Made by a program: the position numbers and the translations under genes. A model generated the notes under the pieces. It searched no databases and had not been told where the DNA came from. It saw only the letters and a program-made list of their open reading frames with translations. Source: Mytilus edulis (taxonomy: Eukaryota). Taken from it: a stretch of 64,000 nucleotides of DNA. Numbering within the stretch: position 1 is the stretch's first letter; every line of letters starts with the position of its first letter. Below, one piece after another: positions 16,428 through 55,123 of this stretch. The stretch lies in the NCBI RefSeq assembly GCF_963676685.1, contig NC_092348.1, positions 88,970,001 to 89,034,000 on the forward strand. Direction: 5' to 3'.

Positions 16428-17352
16428 AAGTCATACTCCAAATACAATCCTCTACAACTCACTGCTATAGTCCGGGTTCAAGTCATACTCCAAATATGAT
16501 CATCTACAACTCACCACTATAGTCAGGGTTCAAGTCATACTCCAAATATAATCCTCTACAACTCACCACTACAGTCAGGGTTCAAGTCATACTCCAAATA
16601 TGATCATCTACAACTCACCACTATAGTCAGGGTTCAAGTCATACTCCAAATATAATCCTCTACAACTCACCACTACAGTCAGGGTTCAAGTCATACTCCA
16701 AATATAATCCTCTACAACTCACCACTACAGTCAGGGTTTAAGTCATATTCCAAATACAATCCTCTACAACTCACCACTACAGTTAGGATTCAAGTCATAT
16801 TCCAAATACAATCCTCTACAACTCACCACTACAGTTAGGATTCAAGTCATACTCCAAATACAATCCTCTACAACTCACCACTACAGTTAGGATTCAAGTC
16901 ATAATCCAAATACAATCCTCTACAAATGACCACTACAGTCGGGGTTTAAGTCAAACTCCAAATACAATCCTCTACAACTCACCACTACAGTTAGGATTCA
17001 AGTCATACTCCAAATACAATCCTCTACAACTCACCACTACAGTCAGGGTTCAATTCCTACTCCAAATACAATCATCTACAACTCACTACTACAGTCAGGG
17101 TTCAAGTCATACTCCAAATACAATCCTCTACAACTCACCACTACTGACAGGGTTCAAGTCTTATTCCAAATACAATGCTCTACAACTCACCACTACAGTC
17201 AGGGTTCAAGTCTTCTTCCAAATGCAGTTCTCTACAACTCACCACTACAGACAGGGTTCAAGTCTTCTTCCAAATGCAATCCTCTACAACTCACCACTTC
17301 AATCAGGGTTCAAGTCTTCTTCCAAATGCAATCCTCTACAACTCACCACTAC
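16428..17352. repeat. 52-bp minisatellite, ~18 copies, between the DCAF11 and HNF4 3' ends
   Basis: Unit CAAGTCATACTCCAAATACAATCCTCTACAACTCACCACTACAGTCAGGGTT. Confidence 0.95.
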
Positions 17353-17989
17353 ATTGACCTCCATAAATCAGAGTAACAGTTACTGACGGTAAGGAATCAA
17401 GTGTCGACTCTAAATGCATTACTCCATTAGACAAATTCACAAAATTGACCTCTGTGTATGTGTTACAGTATTGGTTTCAAGTATCCCTCAAACTGTTTGC
17501 AATACTGGTAAGGTGAACTTGATCCACTAGTACAGGATAGAGGTGCATTTAACATATCAGTATAGATTTCTTCCTGAAAGACCATGGATTTACATGCAGG
17601 TTTTCCAATTGCTCAAGTAAAATGTTTAGACCAAAATAAAGTAACAAAAAACTAATATAAACAAAGGGATAAACAAGTATGAATATAAAGAGATGCGAGA
17701 CCACAATTCAACAATTCAACAATCCTTGTTTTCAAAATTCCAATAGGGAACATATTTTATATAATTGTATCAATAAACCAATTTTTTGAGACCAATCGGC
17801 CATTGGCCTTCTTCAGTTCTTTATTTTTCCTCTCAACTACATGGCTGACATTAATTTGGCCCCTGACATGGCTGACTGTATTATTTTGGCCCCTGATTGA
17901 GTTAATTCAACAATCAACAAGGGCATCTATGTCAAACTAATCTCTGAGAATTAGATTCACTAGAAGTTTGCTGTCATTTATAAGTCTAC

Positions 17990-22769: not shown

Positions 22770-23173
22770 TTACATTGATTCTTGTTTAAACCTCTGTTGT
22801 GGAGTCAATGATTTTTTGTACGATTCACAGTTAGGTAATGACGGAGATGACACGGGTGTGTCAATAAGTCCATTCGTTAGATGTAACGAAGAGTCTAAGG
22901 AACTCATCACAGAATGTCCACTCAAAAACTGATCCGTTGTGCATAGTGGTGGTGTTGGTGTGTTAGCCAATGGTGGCATGCCACCGAGATGGATTGGACT
23001 CGATCCAAGTGGTGACCCTTGACTATGTTGTGGTGACATGTTAACTCCATGTGCATGAGAAACTGACATGACATCTGACGGATTGGCAAACTGGTCCCCA
23101 AAACTGTTACCCATTTGTGATGTTAACGACACTGGTACAGAAGGATTGGTCAACATATCTGTCGGTGCTGCAC
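22770..23173 (-). CDS. HNF4: HNF4 terminal coding exon (F domain)
   Basis: Phase-1 acceptor continues EMLLGG into AAPTDMLTNPS...QRFKQESM, stop TAA at 22772-22770. Confidence 0.88.
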
Positions 23174-25039
23174 CTGTAATTAGAATTATAAAAGTTATAA
23201 ACTACGTAACAACAGACAAAAATTTATATAGGTAAAAGAAATATTAAATCAAAGAGCTTGGTAGCACTACGGGTAAAGATGGCCATTGTTCCCTTGATGT
23301 CAGTATTTTTGTTGCAAAATACTCCCCCTTTATTCCTCATTACAGAAAATAAATTATACCATATATTTTATGAGTACTCAATCTGAAAATTATTCTTGTA
23401 AAATAGAACTCCACCCTTCTTCTGTGTTTAATATGTAAAATAGCAGCAAAGCTACATATCGGAATACCTAATTTATGGATATTACCACTTTTAAAAGGCT
23501 ATGCTTTTTGTTGAAAATTCAGATACAAATTATATTTGTTTTAGCATTTTACATATATATCTGACTTGAATATTGAGTTGTCCAAGTCAATGCTATAATT
23601 ACGTTTACTAGGCCTAAATTTGTTTGAAATCCCAAACTATTTTGCCCTCTACTTTGGGGCTATTTGCATATTGAATATACATAATACCAATAATATACGT
23701 CTTTCCATTAATTTATAACTTGAAAGAAGTAATTATTTGAATCTGGAATAATTCTGAATTAAAGAAAATTGATAAGAAATGAGAAAACTATTCCAATATA
23801 GGAAGATTAGTCATGCATGCTAGGCTAAGGGGGTTAGTTAGTTCATACTAAAATATAAGTGAAAATAACTTGAACGTTATCCATGGCTTACCCACTAAAG
23901 TTGGGTTAGTTTTCATTAGAAATTTCTTATTAATTTTCAAGAATTCAAAACTATCCCAGATTCAAATAATTCCTTGTTTTGAAATTTAAATATTGATTTG
24001 ACTTAATATTTGGGGCCAAATTTAGCCTTTACTGAACTTACTCAATTTTTGCCCATAATTCAGTTCTTAGAGCAAATATCAATTTCTAAAAACTGTGCAA
24101 CCTACATTTATAGTGTACTTCAAATATTTAACTGCGTAGCTAATTACTTAATCAGTTGGGAGTGTTTAACATCCTATACAAGTATTTTACATTAAATTTG
24201 CCATAGATTATTTAAATATTACATTTGATTTGCAATAGATTATATAAATATCACATTTGGATATCGTCATATCTGCATATTTCATCAACTTGAATCATAT
24301 GACCAAGATTATAACTAATTTATGATAACAGCATACAAAATTATTTTATTTACTTTGATTAGAACACCCCAATCTGGTTGACATACAGACCCTGTTTCAT
24401 CTGATAACACCCTATTCGACAATCCTAATATCAACCAATCAAATTTCTGTGTTTGAATTTTTAGAAGTGTGTATCATTACAATAAAAAATTCCCAGAATC
24501 CACCAAAAGTTCATCAAAACAGAAAGTAAAACTCTGTTCTACTTTTTGTTCGACAATCATAATATCATCCAATCATATTTCTGTGTTGAATTTTTAGAGG
24601 TTTGTATAGTACCAACAAGAACAAATACCAAGGATCCCCCAGAAAGATCATCAAAACAGAAAGTAAAACAGAGTGTTGTCAGATCCTTTTTAGCACAGCA
24701 TAGTTACAGGATCTACCTTTATGTCAGATAACATAAAAAATATGATTTAAAAAGATAAAATAAATTTACCTTCATAAATGCTAGACGCAAATTATAAAAG
24801 GTTAGGTTCAATAAATGTAATATCTTCTTGATTCAAAAGATGACAAAGGTATATACAAAACTATGTAATGGTTTTATAACAAACATAATATAAATAAGAT
24901 TTTCTAACAATAATACAGTAGCTCCTTCTCATAAGGCCAAAAAATAAGCAGAGGAAACTGTGGCCTACAACAGACACATGCCACCCTGAACAGAAAAGTG
25001 GTTTTGGCCTCTGGTTAGTGGTAAAAATACCAAGAAATA

Positions 25040-25245
25040 CTGTAAATTCAGAAATAATTGTGTGCATTTATTGTAGCAATTTTATGATTTTAGACTAAAA
25101 TATGATTTAATTTTTGCAATATTGAGAAATATCCTGTTGAATTCATATAAAATATTTCAAAACGCGAAATTTACATTATTGCGATAATAACTCAGTCTCA
25201 TTTTTGGTAACAATAAAACCATCAAAATAATTTCTGAATTTACAG
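25040..25245. mobile_element. Tc1/mariner-type MITE
   Basis: TIR CTGTAAATTCAGAAAT, TA TSD. Confidence 0.75.
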
Positions 25246-25328
25246 TACTGTTAATATGAACAGGCCTTATCACAGTGATGCTTGTTTTTGACATTATAAG
25301 ATTAAGACTACTGTACTATCATACTAAC

Positions 25329-25565
25329 CACCTAATAACATTTCTTGGAGTAAACTATCAATCCTCGCCATTCCAAATAACTTGGCGAACTGTATCTGTT
25401 CAATCATTTGCCAAGTAATGCTCTGTAAGGCGGGCAACAGTAATAAAATCTCCCCAAATCTGCCTCTAGAGTCGTACTGACGATCGTTGATATAATCTTC
25501 CAGATTTACTTGTACTTGGTAACGAAAACTTTTGATTTTTTGTGGATCTGTCAGACCTTTAGCTT
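25329..25565 (-). CDS. HNF4: HNF4 exon (LBD end, AF-2)
   Basis: Encodes [65 protein letters not shown]; canonical splice sites. Confidence 0.96.
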
Positions 25566-25989
25566 CTGGAAAAAAATTGTCAATGTAAGAAACCAAACAT
25601 TTTAGGGTCATTTTCTAGTTCATATGTTTTAATATCATATAATATAAAAGCCTCATCAACATAGCCGAAAATATCTTTTCAGTCATTTTTTTTCTGGATT
25701 TTTCATAAATTGTAAAAATGACGCTTACAATTTGTTTATGATTTTTTTTCACATTTTGTGTTTAAAGCAAGTTTAAGATATAAATATTAATTCAATCAAA
25801 GCCTCTCATTTTCTTTATTTCAAATACTAATCTTATATTTTAATTCAGAAAAAAAACATCAATTTAAATAATAAGAAAGAGTGCATATTTGCCTCAATAC
25901 TGCTTAATTGAGGAACTCTTCCCAAAAAATGAACTACACTTATATCATATCATGTCTTTTTCTCAATTCAGAAAAAAACAGATACTCAC

Positions 25990-26230
25990 CAGGATCAAAG
26001 AAGACAATAGCTTTAATACAGGCAAACTCTGTGTCATCAATCTGTATGTCTCTAAATGCTGCAACTAACTCGTCTAATACTCTGGCTGCAATCGTTCCCA
26101 TCTCCATATCTGTAGCGTTACGTGGAATTATCCCATCATTTCCCAATAATAAAACATCCTTGACGGCCATGGAACGTCTGGCTACACCCAGAACCAAATG
26201 TTCTCCAGCATGAGCTCTCAACAAGGCAAC
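25990..26230 (-). CDS. HNF4: HNF4 exon (LBD)
   Basis: Encodes [40 protein letters not shown]. Confidence 0.96.
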
Positions 26231-26262
26231 CTAAAAATAATAATAAAAAATATTAAATATTT

Positions 26263-26471
26263 AGTTTAGTTTAAACATATTTTATTTACTCAAAGTAAAA
26301 TGGATTGGACACAAGTAAGCCATACTTATGAAGTCCGCTCCGAATGACAATAATTTACAATACAATATTAATATGAGCATGCAATATCAAAATAAACAAT
26401 ATTTTACGAGTCTATCAATTGAGAAAAACAAATGAAACAGAAGTAGATGTAAACATTGAAAACGGTGATGG

Positions 26472-26519
<48 letters not shown>

Positions 26520-26740
26520 CGTGAATTTACCGTAAATACATTTTCTACATAACAAGAAATCTCTCAGACCTCTTGATAAATTCGAATACGTGTTTGAATA
26601 TATTCACATTTTGTTCATACGAGAGATTCGGATTACCAGATGTAAGTAGCTTAACATTTAAAATAAGGTCATCAGGAAGCCATCTTAGATTATTCATCAG
26701 AATTTCTCTCTGGTGTATATATAAAGAGCAGTCTTAAAAG
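26263..26740 (-). mobile_element. 5'-truncated LINE (CR1/L2-group-like) in an HNF4 intron
   Basis: ORF2 C-terminus at 26733-26545 (DCSLY..QR..LLTSGNPNLSYEQNVNIFKHVFEFIKRSERF), (CAT)n 3'UTR, (TAAAC)n tail, 12-bp TSD TATTAAATATTT at 26251-26262 and 26741-26752. Confidence 0.85.
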
Positions 26741-27103
26741 TATTAAATATTTGATCACCATCAAAAGAAGGTGTGTTCCAATTTCATAGAAATTTAAAAT
26801 GTCACAGTGATTAGATTCATTCCAGAGAATTTAAGATCTAACACAGTGATTTTTTTTTATAAAATTCGGAAAAATTCTTTATCTGTTGTTGAACTCTTTG
26901 ATTCACTTCAGAGAATGTTAAATCTGTAGTTGAAATTTTAAAACAACTCCAAAGAATTTTTAATTAATTCATTTCAGAGTACATCTTTTAAACTAGGAAA
27001 TCCTTTAACTGCATAATTAAAAGAATACCTTCTATTTATTAGGCTTACATTTGATAAAATTGTTGTTTTTAATTTTTTTTTTATATATTTATTTTGTTCT
27101 TAC

Positions 27104-27253
27104 CTGATCATCTAATGGCAGTTCACAAAAACACGGTATATATTTTGCCCATTCTACAAGGACAAGTAATTGTTGTTTAATAGATTCACACACATCATCG
27201 GCAGTCGCTATAACCTTGTGTGTTAGGTCACACTGTCCAACGGGGGATGAGAT
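27104..27253 (-). CDS. HNF4: HNF4 exon (LBD start)
   Basis: Encodes [50 protein letters not shown]. Confidence 0.95.
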
Positions 27254-27296
27254 CTGAAAATTCAAACATACATGGTTATTTATACAGTTCTACATA

Positions 27297-27481
27297 CAGT
27301 CAAACTAGCATATAAAGGTCAAATCTAAGGACCAGAGAAAACTGACCTAATAAGAGAGATGATCTTTGAATAAAATGGATTTAAAATGCACAAGTATTAC
27401 AACATCCAATCAAGAAGAGGATGATCTGTTAAAACAGTTTTTTTTTTTTTAATAGAAATGATCTTTATTCAGGTTTGACTG
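27297..27481. mobile_element. Tc1/pogo-type MITE in an HNF4 intron
   Basis: TA-CAGTCAAAC...GTTTGACTG-TA. Confidence 0.6.
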
Positions 27482-27876
27482 TATTCATGCATATGTGAAG
27501 GTTATTCCCAAATTTTTACTTATTATAAAGTATTAGTTCTCTTCCTTTCATTCCTTATTCCCTCACTCAGAATCATACCGATTGATCATTAACTTTATAA
27601 TAACAGTTAAATATCATTTTGTTTTCTAAAAATTGTTTGTATCATCAGATTTTTTCTATCAACAAAATTACTGAGCCAAAAACAGCTCATGAATTATGGA
27701 AATATCATTTTAACAAAATGTCAACATTTTTTTTTCCAAATCCTAGTGACAAATCGGTCTAAAATTAGTCATTACCTATTCATTTTATCATGTGCTTTAT
27801 GTTATGGATCATCCTCATCATCTGATTGTTTTTTTAAACATTAAATAAGATTAAACATAACAATGTATGATCTCAC

Positions 27877-27992
27877 CTGTCTAGAGAGAATTTCAGCGTT
27901 TAACAGCGTACTGACGGAGAGTGAATTGTTTTGACTGGTATCTTCGTAACTGGTTCTTCTAACACTTATTCTGTCTCGTTCATTCTGTACAG
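27877..27992 (-). CDS. HNF4: HNF4 exon (T/A box, hinge)
   Basis: Encodes [39 protein letters not shown]. Confidence 0.95.
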
Positions 27993-28579
27993 CTGTCAAC
28001 AACAAAACAAAAAACTATTATAATCTTTTATTTTACAATGACCTTTTGAAAATCAGAAATACTGATCAAAGGTTGGTAGGAAAATGTTCAGTTTTAATAC
28101 TGACTTTATATCAATCTATAGAGACACCAAGTCATTTTGCAAGAGTAGTCAGAATTGGGAAAGGGGGTCTTTCTTTTCATTATTGTTTAATTTTTTAAGC
28201 CATTTTTTTTTTTCGATATTCTTTATATTTTGGTGTCCTGTTAATACTTTGGCCTATTATTTTTTTGAACCCTCTTTTCTGAATGTTTTTGCCCATTGTT
28301 CTCTATTCAGTAAACCCCATCCAGACCCTTATGCAAGCTATTTTAGATCAGGATATTGCTCTCCAAGAGTAATAATTCAAAATTTATAAAAAAAATCTTG
28401 TGTTAAATCATTTCCTTTGTAGTAAAACTTAAGACTTTTTAAAAGTTCAATTGTCACTCTATAATTGCATTCATTACAGTTGAATGAAGTTATATCAAAG
28501 CTTATGTTATAATATGAACTATGAACTAAATCGTTTAATTTTCTTGTCATGAAATATCATCCATCAGCAATCTGTTTTA

Positions 28580-28903
<324 letters not shown>

Positions 28904-39828: not shown

Positions 39829-41643
39829 AAACTGGACACAGTGACCAATTTTACAGCCAAACAAGAAATCAGACAAAATACTGGACAGTGATAAATGTTA
39901 CAGCCAAACAAGAAATCAGACAAAATACTGGACAGTGATAAATGTTACAGCCAAACAAGAAATCAGACAAAATACTGGACAGTGATAAATGTTACAGCCA
40001 AACAAGAAATCAGACAAAATACTGGACAGTGATAAATGTTACAGCCAAACAAGAAATCAGACAATAAACTGGACACAGTGACCAATGTTACAGCCAAACA
40101 AGAAATCAGACAATAAACTGGACACAGTGACCAATGTTACAGCCAAACAAGAATTCAGACAATAAACTGGACACAATGACCAATGTTACAGCCAAACAAG
40201 AAATCAGACAATAAACTGGACACAGTGACCAATGTTTCAGCCAAAAAAGAAATCAGACAAAATACTGGACATTGTGACCAATGTTTCAGCCAAACAAGAA
40301 ATCAGAAAATAAACTGGACACAGTGACCAATGTTTCAGCCAAAAAAGAAATCAGACAATAAACTGGACACAGTGACCAATGTTTCAGCCAAACAAGAAAT
40401 CAGACAATAAAAGTGGACACAGTGACCAATGTTTCAGCCAAACAAGAAATCAGACAATAAACTGGACACAGTGACCAATGTTTCAGCCAAACAAGAAATC
40501 AGACAAAAAACTGGACATAGTGATCAATGTTTCAGCCAAACAAGAAATCAGAAAATAAACTGGACACAGTGACCAATGTTTCAGGCAAACAAGAAATCAG
40601 ACAATAAACTGGACACAGTGACCAATGTTTCAGCCAAACAAGAAATCAGACAATAAAAGTGACCAATGTTTCAGCCAAACAAGAAATCAGACAATAAACT
40701 GGACACAGTGACCAATGTTTCAGCCAAACAAGAATCAGACAAAATACTGGACAGTGATAAATGTTACAGCCAAACAAGAAATCAGACAAAATACTGGACA
40801 GTGATAAATGTTACAGCCAAACAAGAAATCAGACAAAATACTGGTCAGTGATAAATGTTACAGTCAAACAAGAAATCAGACAATAAACTGGACACAGTGA
40901 CCAATGTTACAGCCAAACAAGAAATCAGACAATAAACTGGACACAGTGACCAATGTAACAGCCAAACAAGAATTCAGACAATAAACTGGACACAATGACC
41001 AATGTTACAGCCAAACAAGAAATCAGACAATAAACTGGACTAGTGACCAATGTTTCAGCCAAACAAGAAATCAGACAAAATACTGGACATCGTGACCAAT
41101 GTTTCAGCCAAACAAAAAATCAGACAATAAACTGGACACAGTGACCAATGTTTCAGCCAAAAAAGAAATCAGACAATAAACTGGACACAGTGACCAATGT
41201 TTCAGCCAAACAAGAAATCAGACAATAAAAGTGGACACAGTGACCAATGTTTCAGCCAAACAAGAAATCAGACAATAAACTGGACACAGTGACCAATGTT
41301 TCAGCCAAACAAGAAATCAGACAAAAAACTGGACATAGTGATCAATGTTTCAGCCAAACAAGAAATCAGACAATAAACTGGACACAGTGACCAATGTTTC
41401 AGCCAAAAAAGAAATCAGACAATAAACTGGACACAGTGACCAATGTTTCAGCCAAACAAGAAATCAGACAATAAAAGTGGACACAGTGACCAATGTTTCA
41501 GCCAAACAAGAAATCAGACAATAAACTGGACACAGTGACCAATGTTTCAGCCAAACAAGAATCAGACAATAAACTGGACATAGTGACCAATGTTTCAGCC
41601 AAACAAGAAATCAGACAAAAAACTGGATATAGTGATCAATGTC
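39829..41643. repeat. 47/49-bp minisatellite, ~37 copies, with higher-order structure
   Basis: Unit AATAAACTGGACACAGTGACCAATGTTTCAGCCAAACAAGAAATCAGAC plus a 47-bp variant. Confidence 0.95.
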
Positions 41644-50047: not shown

Positions 50048-52265
50048 AACTAGAGGCTCTCAAGAGCCTGTGTCGCTCACCTTGGTCTATGTGCATATTA
50101 AACAATGCCAATGGACACAGATAAATTCATGACAAAATTGTGTTTTGGTGATCATGATGTGTTTGTAGATCTTACTTTACTGAACATTCTTGTTGCTACA
50201 ATTATCTCTTTCTATAATGAACTTGGCCCAGTAATTTCCATGATTACAGTGGAAAATATTTTCTAAAACTTTACAAAAATTTATGAAAATTGTTAAGAAA
50301 TGACTATAAAGGACAATAACTCCTTAAGGGGTCAATTGACAAGTTTGGTCATATTGACTTATTTGTAGATCTTATTTTGCTGAACATTATTGTTGTTTAC
50401 AGTTTATCTCTATCTATAATAATATTCAAAATAATAATCAAAATCTCCAAAGTTTCCTTAAAATTACTAATTTTGGGGCAGCAACCCAACAACAGGTTGT
50501 CTGTTTTGTCTGAAAATTTCAGGGCAGATAGATATTGACCTGATAAACAATTTAATCAATATCGGATTTGCTTTTAACGCTTTGGTTGCAGAGGTAAAAG
50601 CCAAAATCTACATTTCACCCTATGTACTATTTTTAGCCATGGCAGCCATCTTGGTAGGTTGGCCAGGTCATCGGACACATTTTTTAAACTAGATACCCAA
50701 ATGATGATTGTGGCCAAGTTTGGTTAAATTTGGCTCAGTAGTTTCAGAGGAGAAGATCTTTTAAAAGAATACTAAAATTTTTGAAAAATGGTTAAAAATT
50801 TACTATAAGGGCAATAACTCCTTAAGGGGTAAACTGACAATTTTGGTCAATTGATTTATTTGTAGATCTTACTTTGCTGAACATTATTGCTGTTTACAGT
50901 TTATCTCTATCTATAATAATATTCAAGATAATACCCAACAAGAGGCTGTCACAACGACAGCAAACCGGATTTATTAACATTTATTTGTGTCCTGGCAATA
51001 TCACAAGAACCATAATTGATGAATGCTGAAAGTGAAAATCGTCAATATCAAATTTGACCTCCATTTTGTAGTCAGTATCAACACATTAAAATTTGAAAAG
51101 CTTAGATTGAATGGTTCATTAGTAAATGCAACAACGTGAATGGAAACGCCATTTTACGATCTTTCAAGAACCATAACTCCTGAACAGTAAAAGTCAAAAT
51201 CGTCATTATTGAACTTGACCTCTATTTTGTCATCAGTAACAACATATAAAAATTTCAAAAGCTTTGGTTGAATGGTTTATAAGAAAATGCACGGACACGA
51301 CTGGAAACTCCATTTTTCAATCTTTCAAGAACCATAACTCCTGAACCGTAAAAGTCAAAATTGTCATTATTGAACTTGACCTCCATTTTGTCATCAGTAA
51401 CAATATATTAAAATTTGGGAAGCTTTGGTAGAACTGTTCATGCGTAAATGCACGGACACGACTGGAAACTCCATTTTTCAATCTTTCAAGAACCATAACT
51501 CCTGAACCATAAAAGTCAAAATCGTCATTATTGTACTTGACCTCCATTTTGTCATTGGTAACAACATATAAAAATTCGGTAAGCTTTTGTAGAACAGTTC
51601 ATGCGTAAATGCACGGACACGACTGGAAACTCCATTTTTCAATCTTTCAAGAACCATAACTCCTGAACGGTAAAAGTCAAAATCGCCATTATTGTTCTTG
51701 ACCTTCATTTAGTTGTCAGTAACAACATATTAAAATTTTAAAAGCTTTGGTTGAACGGTTCATGAGTTAATGCACGGACAACATTTGATTGCCGCCCGCC
51801 CGGCCGCCCGCCGTACATCCCCAAATCAATAACCGACATTTTTGTCACAAAAATCCGGTTAAAAACTGCAAAATTTCCTTAAAATTACTAATTTTTGGGC
51901 AGTAACCCAACAACGGGTTGTCTGATTTGTCTGCAAATTTCAGGGCAGATAGATCTTGACCTAATAAACAATTTTACCCACTGTCAGATTTGCTCTAAAT
52001 GCTTTGGTTTCAGAGTTATATTAGCCAAAATCTACATTTTACCCCTTATTCTATTTTTAGTCATGGCAGCCATCTTGGTTGGTTGGTAGGGTCACGCCAC
52101 ATATTTTTAAACTAGATACCCCAATGATGATTGTGGCCAAGTTTGGTTAAATTTGCCCCAGTAGTTTCAGAGGAGAAGTTTTTTGTTAATGTTAACAGAC
52201 GACAAACGACGGACGCCAAGTGATGAGAAAAGCTCACTTGACCTTTCAGGTCAGGTGAGCTAAAA
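50048..52265 (-). mobile_element. HINE-like element, same family as 6614-7877, interrupted by a nested element
   Basis: Reverse-complement match to 6614-7877 on both sides of 50937-51862. Confidence 0.75.
50937..51862 (-). mobile_element. Nested HINE-like element carrying 161-bp tandem repeats
   Basis: Subterminal IR AACCGGATTT/AAATCCGGTT, (GCCC)n, repeat units at 51160, 51321, 51482 and 51643. Confidence 0.7.
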
Positions 52266-52423
52266 AGTGATCAGACAGTTTTGACAATTACTACAGGTGG
52301 CTGATCTCAGCATTTTAAAAATTATTCCCTTGTCACATTTTCTCTTTTAATAGTGGTTTTAAGATAATATACAAAACTATCATTATATCTGACAATGTTC
52401 ATGACTTTGGACATGCCCATACA

Positions 52424-54569
52424 CACGGTGTAGAATGGTAACGGACTTATCGGGTTTTTGTCGGCGTTTCCGCACTAATCGAGTTCGGCGACGGACTTAT
52501 CGCGTTTTGTTTTCAGACAGTGTGACACAAAATGAGCCAAATAGATGAAAAAAAGTCGTTAGTGTTTATGTTTATATGATCACGGAAGGCACCAATGATC
52601 TAACTTTGCAAAAATTTTCATTTTGCTTCGGTACCACTCTTGGCTTTTTCAAAAAGCTCCACACTAAACAGGTCAACAGGCCGAACACAGCTACTAATGG
52701 TGTGTTTTCCGTTTAAATACACAACATATTAGAATGTGGACTTTTTGTGCTCCTTTATTTCATACAAAATACATATTAGAACCACTTGTGTGCATTCAAA
52801 AACTTAAAATATCGTATATCAAAGCTTTATCAAAATTGGTTGACAGCGGACTAATCGGGTTTCCCTAAAATGGCGTGTTTTTTGGCACCGAACTGTTGAG
52901 GTTTATTTAGCCCAGGAATTATTGTGTTTTTATTGTTTTACCAGGGTAAAAAATGATGTTTTCGTATTTTTTGTTTGTTTGGGAAATGAAAAATAAAAGA
53001 TTTTAATAACCCCATGTATTTGAAATCGTGTGCTAGAATATACAAGTCTGGAACTTCTCACGAACAAGTGTTTTTCCGCAATCTTGATTTTTTTTTCTTT
53101 GAGTAAAAGTACATGGGGCAATATCACATGCAATGCGAAACTAAACACAAATGGTCTATTTCTGCTCTATCCCAGATTAACATGTGAAGGTCTTTTGACA
53201 GATGTTTCGAAAAGACACGTTTATCCCGGCGTAATAGAAATATTCATAATGATGCATGTATGAGTGAAGCTTTATGTGTCAGTCCTGAAAAACGATTGTT
53301 GATGGAGCCGGTGAATAACTATAACAACTGTTCCTTGTGTCTTTTTGTTGTTGGGATGTACAAGTACCCAGCCACGTCCACTTGAATTTTTGTCCATCTG
53401 ATGAGTTAAGCCTTTTTCAACTGAATTTTATAGTTCGTTCTTATGGTGTACTATTATACCACTGTCCCAACTAACATGTTTAACCCCACCACATTATGTA
53501 TGGATGTATGTGCCTGTCCCAAGTCAGGAGCCTGTAATTCAGTTGTTGTCGTTTGTTTATGTGTAACATTTGTTTTTCATTCATTTTTTTTTATATAAAT
53601 AAGGCCGATTGTTTTCTCGTATGAATTGTTTTACATTGTCATTTCGGGGCCTTTTATAGCTGACTATGCAGTATTGGCCTTGCTCGTTGTCGAAGGCCGT
53701 ACGGTGACATATAATTGGTAATTACTGTGTCATTTTGGTCTCTTGTGGAGAGTTGTCTGATTGGAAATCATATATATATACCACATCTTCTTTTTTATAC
53801 CTACTAGTTCAAATAACTATCATGTCTTGAAAGGCATTCTTTGACGCCTTACATCGTCGCAGAAGGGCGTCAAAGTAAACATTTAGAATAGCCTTCCCAG
53901 ACGTCATAATTATTTGTACTAGAGGCCGAGATACTGATAGAATCCCACACATTTGCTTGTGGATTAATAAAGTGTATCATTGTGTGATGTGTGATTAATG
54001 TATAAAGTAAGAAGTGTTGAACAACCATGAAGGCGGAGTAAAAACATAGACTGACTGAGAAGATATGAGTTTCCAAATTCATTTGCGCACAAAGAGTCCG
54101 GTGCCAAAAACACAAAGAGTCTGGTGCCACAAATTTTCCAGATTAACAATCATTTAAGACCTTAATAGTGCATGAAACAGTTCCGAAAGGGAAAATGTCT
54201 AAATTTAATAAATAATAACCAATTATTTACTTGCAGAAGAAAACAACAAGCTTAAAACACGCTTCAATTGGACATCTTTCCATGAAAAATGTTTGTTTTC
54301 AAGTTGGGGTACCACATTGGTGGAAACAATTTAAAATAAATCGTAGCTTCCCATGAATATATGACTAGATATCCAGCAAAATAAATAATTTCCCCATTCC
54401 GTGACATCAAGCTTATTTGGAAATATCAATTCTGCTTTAATACAAATTGAAAGAAATAACCACTTACGCCAAATGTTGTCACCTGAAAACACGATAAGTC
54501 CGTTGCTGAACCCGATTAGTGCGGAAACGCCGAAAAAACCCGATAAGTCCGTTACCATTCTACACTGTG
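52424..54569. mobile_element. Non-autonomous DNA transposon with CAC..GTG ends and 5-bp TSD (Transib/RAG-like)
   Basis: ~80-bp TIRs CAC(G/A)GTGTAGAATGGTAACGGACTTATCGGG, TSD ATACA on both sides, repeated CGGACTTATCG motifs, nested repeat at ~53330-53800. Confidence 0.75.
53330..53800 (+). mobile_element. Non-autonomous interspersed repeat (same group as 3095-3350, 7905-8290, 56945-57180, 61250-61755, 63180-63840)
   Basis: Shared CCTGT..AAGTCAGG core and GGAGAGTTGTCTC..CATACCACATCTTC end. Confidence 0.6.
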
Positions 54570-55123
54570 ATACATGTGTGCTTAAATTGAACTTTTCTTT
54601 TTAAATCTCTATATTCCCCCCTTTTTTGTCTAATCAATGGGTGAACAATACTGAACATAAAAATCAGTACAAGAAAATCTCATACAGCTACAAAAACTGT
54701 TAATAAATAGCAAACAAGTATATATACATTGTACATATAGCTCAATGCACGCTCACTTCCTATTATTATTACGTTTACCCAAGAATCTTGATCAAAACAT
54801 AATTTGGCATATATATATATATATCTACATGTGTTCTAACATGGTACATTTACTTAAATCAAACCACAATCATAAACAAGACAGACAAACAGATGATAGC
54901 AGAAGAAAGACATGAAATTAAATTACCAAATTAACTAACATAATGTCTGATGAACGTAATGAAACAAGTACATGTATACTTAATGAAAACAATAATAAAT
55001 ATAAATTCTACCACTTCATCAAGTGTAATGTCATATTTCTGCACTCAAGACAGTTTAATTTTCATATTTAAACACAAGGTTTGCCAAGATATTTTAATCA
55101 TCAAAAATTAAACAGCAGACTAA

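Follow-up and report, generated by a model that had tools for sequence, protein, structure and literature searches.

Transposons of the CACTA–Mirage–Chapaev–Transib (CMCT) lineages have common CA..TG termini and target site duplications (TSDs) of 2–5 bp (PMC12730594). Transib is marked by TSDs of 5 bp (PMC1131882), and CACAGTG ends published Transib loci (PMC9435367 supplement). AA at nonamer positions 5–6 is conserved in both Transib and the recombination signal sequence (RSS), and the non-autonomous element TransibN1_AG targets cCASTGg (PMC1131882). The features of the TIR and the TSD are nevertheless labile within Transib (bioRxiv 10.64898/2026.08.26.747230), and only one Transib ORF is reported from surveyed molluscs (PMC10294476).

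The element described here lies in a stretch of 64,000 nucleotides (64 kb) of Mytilus edulis DNA, which we call the window. Its family resembles the non-autonomous Transib elements TransibN1/N2_AG and Hopper/Kodama (PMC1131882, bioRxiv 10.64898/2026.08.26.747230) in having CAC..GTG ends with a CACNGTG heptamer, a 5-bp TSD, symmetric TIRs, no coding capacity, and C and G just outside the TSD. It differs from them in lacking an A-rich nonamer at positions 33–36, in having T after the heptamer where Transib has GG, in its AT-rich rather than GC-rich TSDs, and in a TIR of ~85 bp with three motifs where that of Transib is ~38 bp. The non-autonomous RAGL-B elements found in Pinctada and in Branchiostoma (PMC7204232 Fig. 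S2b), the former likewise in a bivalve host, are also about 2 kb long with CAC termini and a 5-bp TSD, but our family has neither the RAGL TIR consensus nor the A-rich TR2, the asymmetry between ends or the GC-rich TSDs. CMC elements (EnSpm/CACTA and Chapaev; PMC12730594) have the same CAC..GTG termini, but with a TSD of 2–4 bp instead of 5 bp.

The element and its family

The element belongs to an old DNA transposon family without genes and is one of many copies dispersed in the genome. Its parts, by position in the window, are:

52419–52423, unstranded: left 5-bp TSD, ATACA
52424–54569, unstranded: non-autonomous DNA transposon copy, 2146 bp
52424–52508, plus strand: left TIR, about 85 bp, beginning with the family-consensus heptamer CACGGTG
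52442–52502, plus strand: three subterminal CGGACTWATCG-type motifs, 19, 48 and 69 bp from the left end
52453–52461, plus strand: GGTTTTTGT, the RSS nonamer in reverse complement, forming the T-rich tail of the first motif
52847–52857, plus strand: fourth subterminal motif copy, 424 bp from the left end
52879–52897, plus strand: inner inverted-repeat arm, with its partner at 54092–54110, about 460 bp from each end
53330–53803, unstranded: captured, very-high-copy genomic repeat (from depth and non-family coverage; left edge approximate)
53804–53922, unstranded: palindromic (foldback) repeat of ~120 bp, nested here and also present separately at other genomic loci
54088–54133, minus strand: two tandem 23-bp units with the inner inverted motif
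54486–54569, minus strand: right TIR with three motifs, ending in CACAGTG
54570–54574, unstranded: right 5-bp TSD, ATACA

The left end reads CACGGTG from 52424 and the right end reads CACAGTG inward from 54569; these ends and the ATACA duplication beside them are as the first-pass annotation had given them. The inverted repeat it described is also real, though longer than was implied: the TIR extends over about 85 bp with a one-base offset, in arms of 36 nt at 97 per cent and 56 nt at 89 per cent identity. The motif CGGACTWATCG (up to one mismatch) occurs seven times in the 64-kb window, where 0.16 occurrences are expected, and every occurrence is within the element. Each end has three of these, at distances of 19, 48, and 69 bp, and one lies 424 bp from the left, which bears out the earlier remark that subterminal motifs recur, including one near 52848. 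The motifs are putative transposase binding sites. Repeated subterminal motifs are typical of CACTA elements, and hAT elements can have subterminal repeat arrays as well; that such arrays are more typical of these two groups counts against a Transib-like placement.

The interior of the element consists largely of the arms and captured repeats. Depth over the captured repeat at 53330–53803 is about 1000-fold that of the arms, and loci outside the family cover 53386–53803 of it. Separate copies of the ~120-bp palindrome were found at many loci, with matches to query positions 1–114 on both strands. Most full-length family copies contain both of these repeats, so their capture probably preceded the last amplification. 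The description of the element as a deletion derivative is plausible. Among the 22 of 31 stop-to-stop frames that were scanned, no coding remnant gave a Pfam match below E 0.05, in keeping with the earlier failure to recognize any RAG1/2 remnant, and Rfam gave no match.

We carried out the genome-wide TIR search that the first-pass annotation had called for in an assembly of 1.37 Gb (14 large contigs). A 23-base terminus pattern with up to three mismatches identified eighty termini, and its reversed control identified none. A 12-base pattern performed at chance level (101 matches, against 131 for the control), and the 100 matches listed included no new pair converging within 20 kb. The family end was not found in the viral, metagenome, and prokaryote collections searched. 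In the literature, no title or abstract that we found describes the family, and no paper was returned for ‘Transib’ with ‘CACGGTG’; the family may already be catalogued in Repbase or Dfam.

We fetched 10 kb inward from the termini and aligned nineteen long copies, excising nested insertions from four of them. The consensus is 2263 bp long, with a longest stop-free frame of 117 aa, and the window copy is without about 107 bp of it near 53328. Excluding CpG sites, the window copy (itself part of the alignment) diverges from the consensus by 2.4 per cent, sixteen other copies by 3.1–6.8 per cent, and two by 12–16 per cent. A second set consists of short copies that are 71–86 per cent identical, several of them made of two left ends (L166, L178, L182). 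The long copies with ORFs that had been proposed as a search target were not found: the 10-kb inward reads from the fetched termini include no long autonomous copy, the longer paired copies (3.0–5.6 kb) are the short element with nested insertions, and no family copy has a transposase.

Several individual copies have unusual structures. Older copies of 200–700 bp with two left ends in a foldback form are present at L166, L170, L176, L178, and L182, and the L178 foldback retains a perfect 5-bp TSD. At L070 (G000:C3:32494900-32497400), a ~100-bp inverted duplicate of the copy’s own left flank comes after the right end, and beyond it is a second terminus with the true TSD, TAATA; this arrangement resembles a product of template switching or repair.

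Contigs of four other samples (three organism codes) also contain the insertion. The right junction was bridged in 4/4 and the left in 1/4 under a 31-letter rule, with 28–29 letters in the other three; the four runs were chosen for holding this stretch, so that their junctions show sharing rather than fixation. No empty allele of the locus appeared among the 15 joints listed (there were 1674 further) in the four runs, which is no evidence of fixation.

The element is about 24 kb 5′ of a set of nuclear receptor exons on the minus strand (window 22770–28903, with zf-C4 at 28580–28903 and the ligand-binding domain at 25943–26230). It may be upstream of this gene, which we take to resemble HNF4, or in its first intron. 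The window also contains minisatellite arrays at 16428–17353, 39829–41642, and 51004–51780, with units of 52, 49, and 161 bp. Elsewhere, family ends are found within a few kb of a homeobox exon and a noggin gene (L074:5701-6360, L086:5830-6600), and of a STING ligand-binding-like exon and WD40 exons (L159:1663-1938, L080). Reverse-transcriptase-like frames of one abundant retroelement type, presumably Penelope-like, are present at L078:693-1742, L082:5040-6170, and L191:7799-10000, and one such frame ends at the left edge of the window. A 101-aa frame at L167:2957-3259 has a weak Pfam SP24 match (E 8e-5, below the cut-off) that may be due to chance.

Target sites and the resemblance to an RSS

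We tabulated TSDs for eighteen convergent pairs and two more found among eighteen single ends, excluding the near-duplicates L095 and L096. Fourteen of these twenty paired copies have an exact 5-bp TSD (twelve at first pass, with L070 and L163 added once the true right ends were used), four have one mismatch, and two, both with eroded ends, have none. This upholds the original description of a non-autonomous cut-and-paste transposon with CAC..GTG ends and a 5-bp TSD; duplications of 2–4 bp, which the first-pass annotation had named as evidence against its reading, are not seen in the other copies. For three of the eighteen copies tested, we found empty paralogous sites with a single 5-mer. Because these empty repeats have the 5-mer only once, the 5-bp duplication arises at insertion.

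The five bases beside the fifty-eight intact termini are AT-rich (GC 52/290 or 18 per cent, background 33 per cent, P = 7e-9), although the 290 bases are partly dependent since the two ends of one element have a common TSD. The fourteen paired TSDs alone give a similar picture (GC 10/70, P = 3e-4). Farther out, C is found at −6 in 23/58 termini and at −7 in 22/58 (P = 2e-5 and 7e-5). From the AT-rich five bases and the C at −6/−7, the target is therefore ccWWWWWgg, and the C enrichment outside the TSD echoes the cCASTGg targets given for TransibN1_AG. The non-coding element inserted by cut-and-paste at AT-rich palindromic targets, with a stagger of 5 bp.

For comparison, we used a degenerate Transib motif to obtain 100 metagenome loci, one of which encodes a protein matching the solved transposase 6pqn (E 2e-106). 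Twenty-three control ends, 1–3 kb from Transib motifs, were picked by CACAGTGG, which places the heptamer itself outside the test. These true Transib ends have AA at 34–35 in 18/23 cases, and their flanks are GC-rich (67/115 or 58 per cent), though the hosts differ in GC and some of the ends are related. Published TSDs of non-autonomous RAGL elements are also GC-rich (46/70, against 10/70 in our family; PMC7204232 supplement 2). The family differs from both sets, and the canonical Transib membership that had been suggested fails on two features, the A-rich nonamer and the GC of the targets.

The suggested RAGL membership is not supported either. RAGL elements, including non-autonomous ones of ~2 kb, do occur in bivalves (PMC7204232), and CAC termini with a TSD of the right length are found in our family. 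However, the protostome RAGL TIR consensus in the same source, CACTWMCAAACKTYKBB, has AAA at 8–10 where the family has TAG, and the family end CACGGTGTAGAATGG does not fit it. The family TIRs are symmetric, without an A-rich TR2 or nonamer, and its TSDs are not GC-rich as those of RAGL/ProtoRAG are. A genome search with PF12940 returned 0 candidates, though no positive control rang and PF12940 does not detect Transib; two mollusc RAG1L motifs, taken from the alignment in PMC7204232 supplement 7, gave one chance match and none, so that RAG1L was not found with these queries, though its absence is not proven. A non-autonomous RAGL transposon with RSS-type ends, mobilized by RAG1L–RAG2L, is thus largely refuted already, and we regard it as very improbable.

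The first-pass annotation had placed much weight on the likeness of the ends to an RSS, and here the family points elsewhere. Among seventy-one distinct termini, the heptamer is CACGGTG in forty-three, CACAGTG in six, and CATGGTG in four, with CAC intact in fifty-eight. The family heptamer CACGGTG is one transition away from CACAGTG. Deamination of the CpG in CACGGTG gives either CACAGTG or CATGGTG, so the exact V(D)J heptamer is most likely a product of CpG decay. The nonamer complement GGTTTTTGT is indeed 22 bp after the heptamer and inverted, as first noted, but it is part of the repeated motif: it is present, inverted, in 16/71 termini, and each motif copy is followed by a T-rich tail. The RSS nonamer or its reverse complement occurs three times in the 64-kb window. 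AA at nonamer positions 5–6 was found in at most 2/71 termini (spacers 11–13 and 22–24). A V(D)J RSS, with CACAGTG, a 12/23 spacer, and ACAAAAACC on the same strand, was considered and rejected: the nonamer is inverted and on the CACGGTG end, and the exact heptamer is a minority state (6/71). The family’s likeness to the antibody-gene recombination signal is accidental.

Candidate mobilizing transposases

A mobilizing partner elsewhere in this genome, as the first-pass annotation had proposed, was not found with the queries used. An autonomous partner of Transib type would encode a RAG1-core-like transposase of ~700 aa. A Transib motif matched the genome twenty times (eleven times in the control), never in a transposase-like frame. 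A Transib protein had no match to the genome at E 0.1, and a profile of sixteen Transib sequences had none in the fetched loci, the window, or the consensus. Searches of protein representatives and homologues returned close Transib relatives only, with no bivalve seed. Altogether, six queries recovered no RAG1-like or Transib gene from the assembly, though its absence is not proven. In Pfam, which in the copy used is blind to Transib, the 205 frames of at least 85 aa from forty-one loci included no CMCT transposase. One weak DDE_3 match was found beyond the part that matches the family, some 6 kb from an end.

The search machinery did recover other transposases: PF02992 had fifty-three matches in the genome, many in long open frames. 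Several of these EnSpm/CACTA-type frames (550–1000 aa, L213–L242) are in near-identical, multi-copy regions of 7–15 kb. We examined twenty of the fifty-three loci (±10 kb) and found family ends around the transposase in none, nor do their sequences match the family ends; a TIR finder restricted to CAC/CCC defined no EnSpm element ends. The genome-wide terminus search placed no family end within 10 kb of the other thirty-three matches. A CACTA-type partner, which the first-pass annotation had held to be incompatible with its reading, was thus not seen at the twenty loci.

These results bear on a mobilizer from the CMC branch, a Chapaev or EnSpm-like transposase that leaves 5 bp instead of 2–4 and binds the subterminal repeats. 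CAC..GTG termini are common to EnSpm (PMC12730594, PMC6004678) and to our family, which has the repeated motifs as well; every mollusc surveyed has CMC elements (PMC10294476), with the fifty-three PF02992 matches here, and TSD length varies within lineages (bioRxiv 10.64898/2026.08.26.747230). Reported CMC duplications are nevertheless 2–4 bp (bioRxiv 10.64898/2026.08.26.747230, PMC4482050), and, on the EnSpm side, the examined PF02992 loci lack family ends around the transposase. We consider such a mobilizer unlikely.

A source in hAT5 or another non-CMCT group with 5-bp TSDs seems less likely still. hAT5 does make 5-bp TSDs (PMC12730594), hAT elements favour AT-rich sites (PMC1131882), and the subterminal arrays mentioned above would suit them. 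In contrast to the C of our family, however, the third base of hAT termini is reported to be always G (PMC1131882 Fig. S7 legend, for families with 8-bp TSDs), and no hAT frame was found inward of any family end. A PHIS source fits poorly too, since those groups begin with A/G or GG and their target motifs are fixed (PMC4482050).

Placement of the family

The best reading of the sequences is an aged, non-autonomous family of the CMCT clade with a probable Transib-like cutting geometry, a clade assignment based on the ends and the TSD. We give a probability of about 0.62 that the family was moved in the past by a CMCT-clade transposase, most likely a divergent Transib-like one, not found in the assembly. 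We infer this mobilization in trans because the CMCT lineages have CA..TG ends and 2–5-bp TSDs. The family has the 5-bp TSD of Transib and a terminal CAC within a heptamer like CACAATG/CACAGTG, but not the A-rich nonamer after a spacer of 12 or 22–23 bp, nor the GC-rich targets. We therefore describe it as Transib-like in end and stagger, and do not file it as canonical Transib or RAGL because the defining features of these were tested and not found.

Under mobilization by a Transib-like CMCT enzyme, a transposase supplied in trans would have recognized the subterminal motifs and cleaved at the CAC border. It would then have joined the ends to the two opposite strands of an AT-rich target, at positions separated by 5 bp, with repair of the joined target producing the 5-bp duplication. 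By analogy with RAG and Transib, a Transib-like enzyme would be expected to use hairpin-type cleavage. An older wave may have left the short, more diverged copies, some derived from two left ends. Later, a ~2.26-kb master in which the two repeats had already been captured would have spread to a few dozen sites, and its copies would since have decayed by 2–7 per cent.

A bolder proposal, which we offer tentatively and hold as possible but doubtful, is that an undescribed bivalve lineage within the Transib/RAG–CMC transposase clade left this family behind as its footprint. Such a lineage would have kept the CAC heptamer and the 5-bp stagger, with a subterminal array replacing the nonamer/TR2 and AT-rich palindromic ccWWWWWgg sites replacing GC-rich targets, and its end recognition would be intermediate between CACTA-like and Transib-like.

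In itself, the family is an ordinary dead non-autonomous transposon. It can serve repeat annotation, and it warns against reading an RSS into CAC ends with a 5-bp TSD. A partner, if found, would make it possible to test which regions of the protein determine target choice and TIR recognition in the parent lineage of RAG. It would matter because Transib is nearly absent in mollusc surveys (PMC10294476) and because the family combines a 5-bp stagger with the opposite target composition and a different mode of end recognition.
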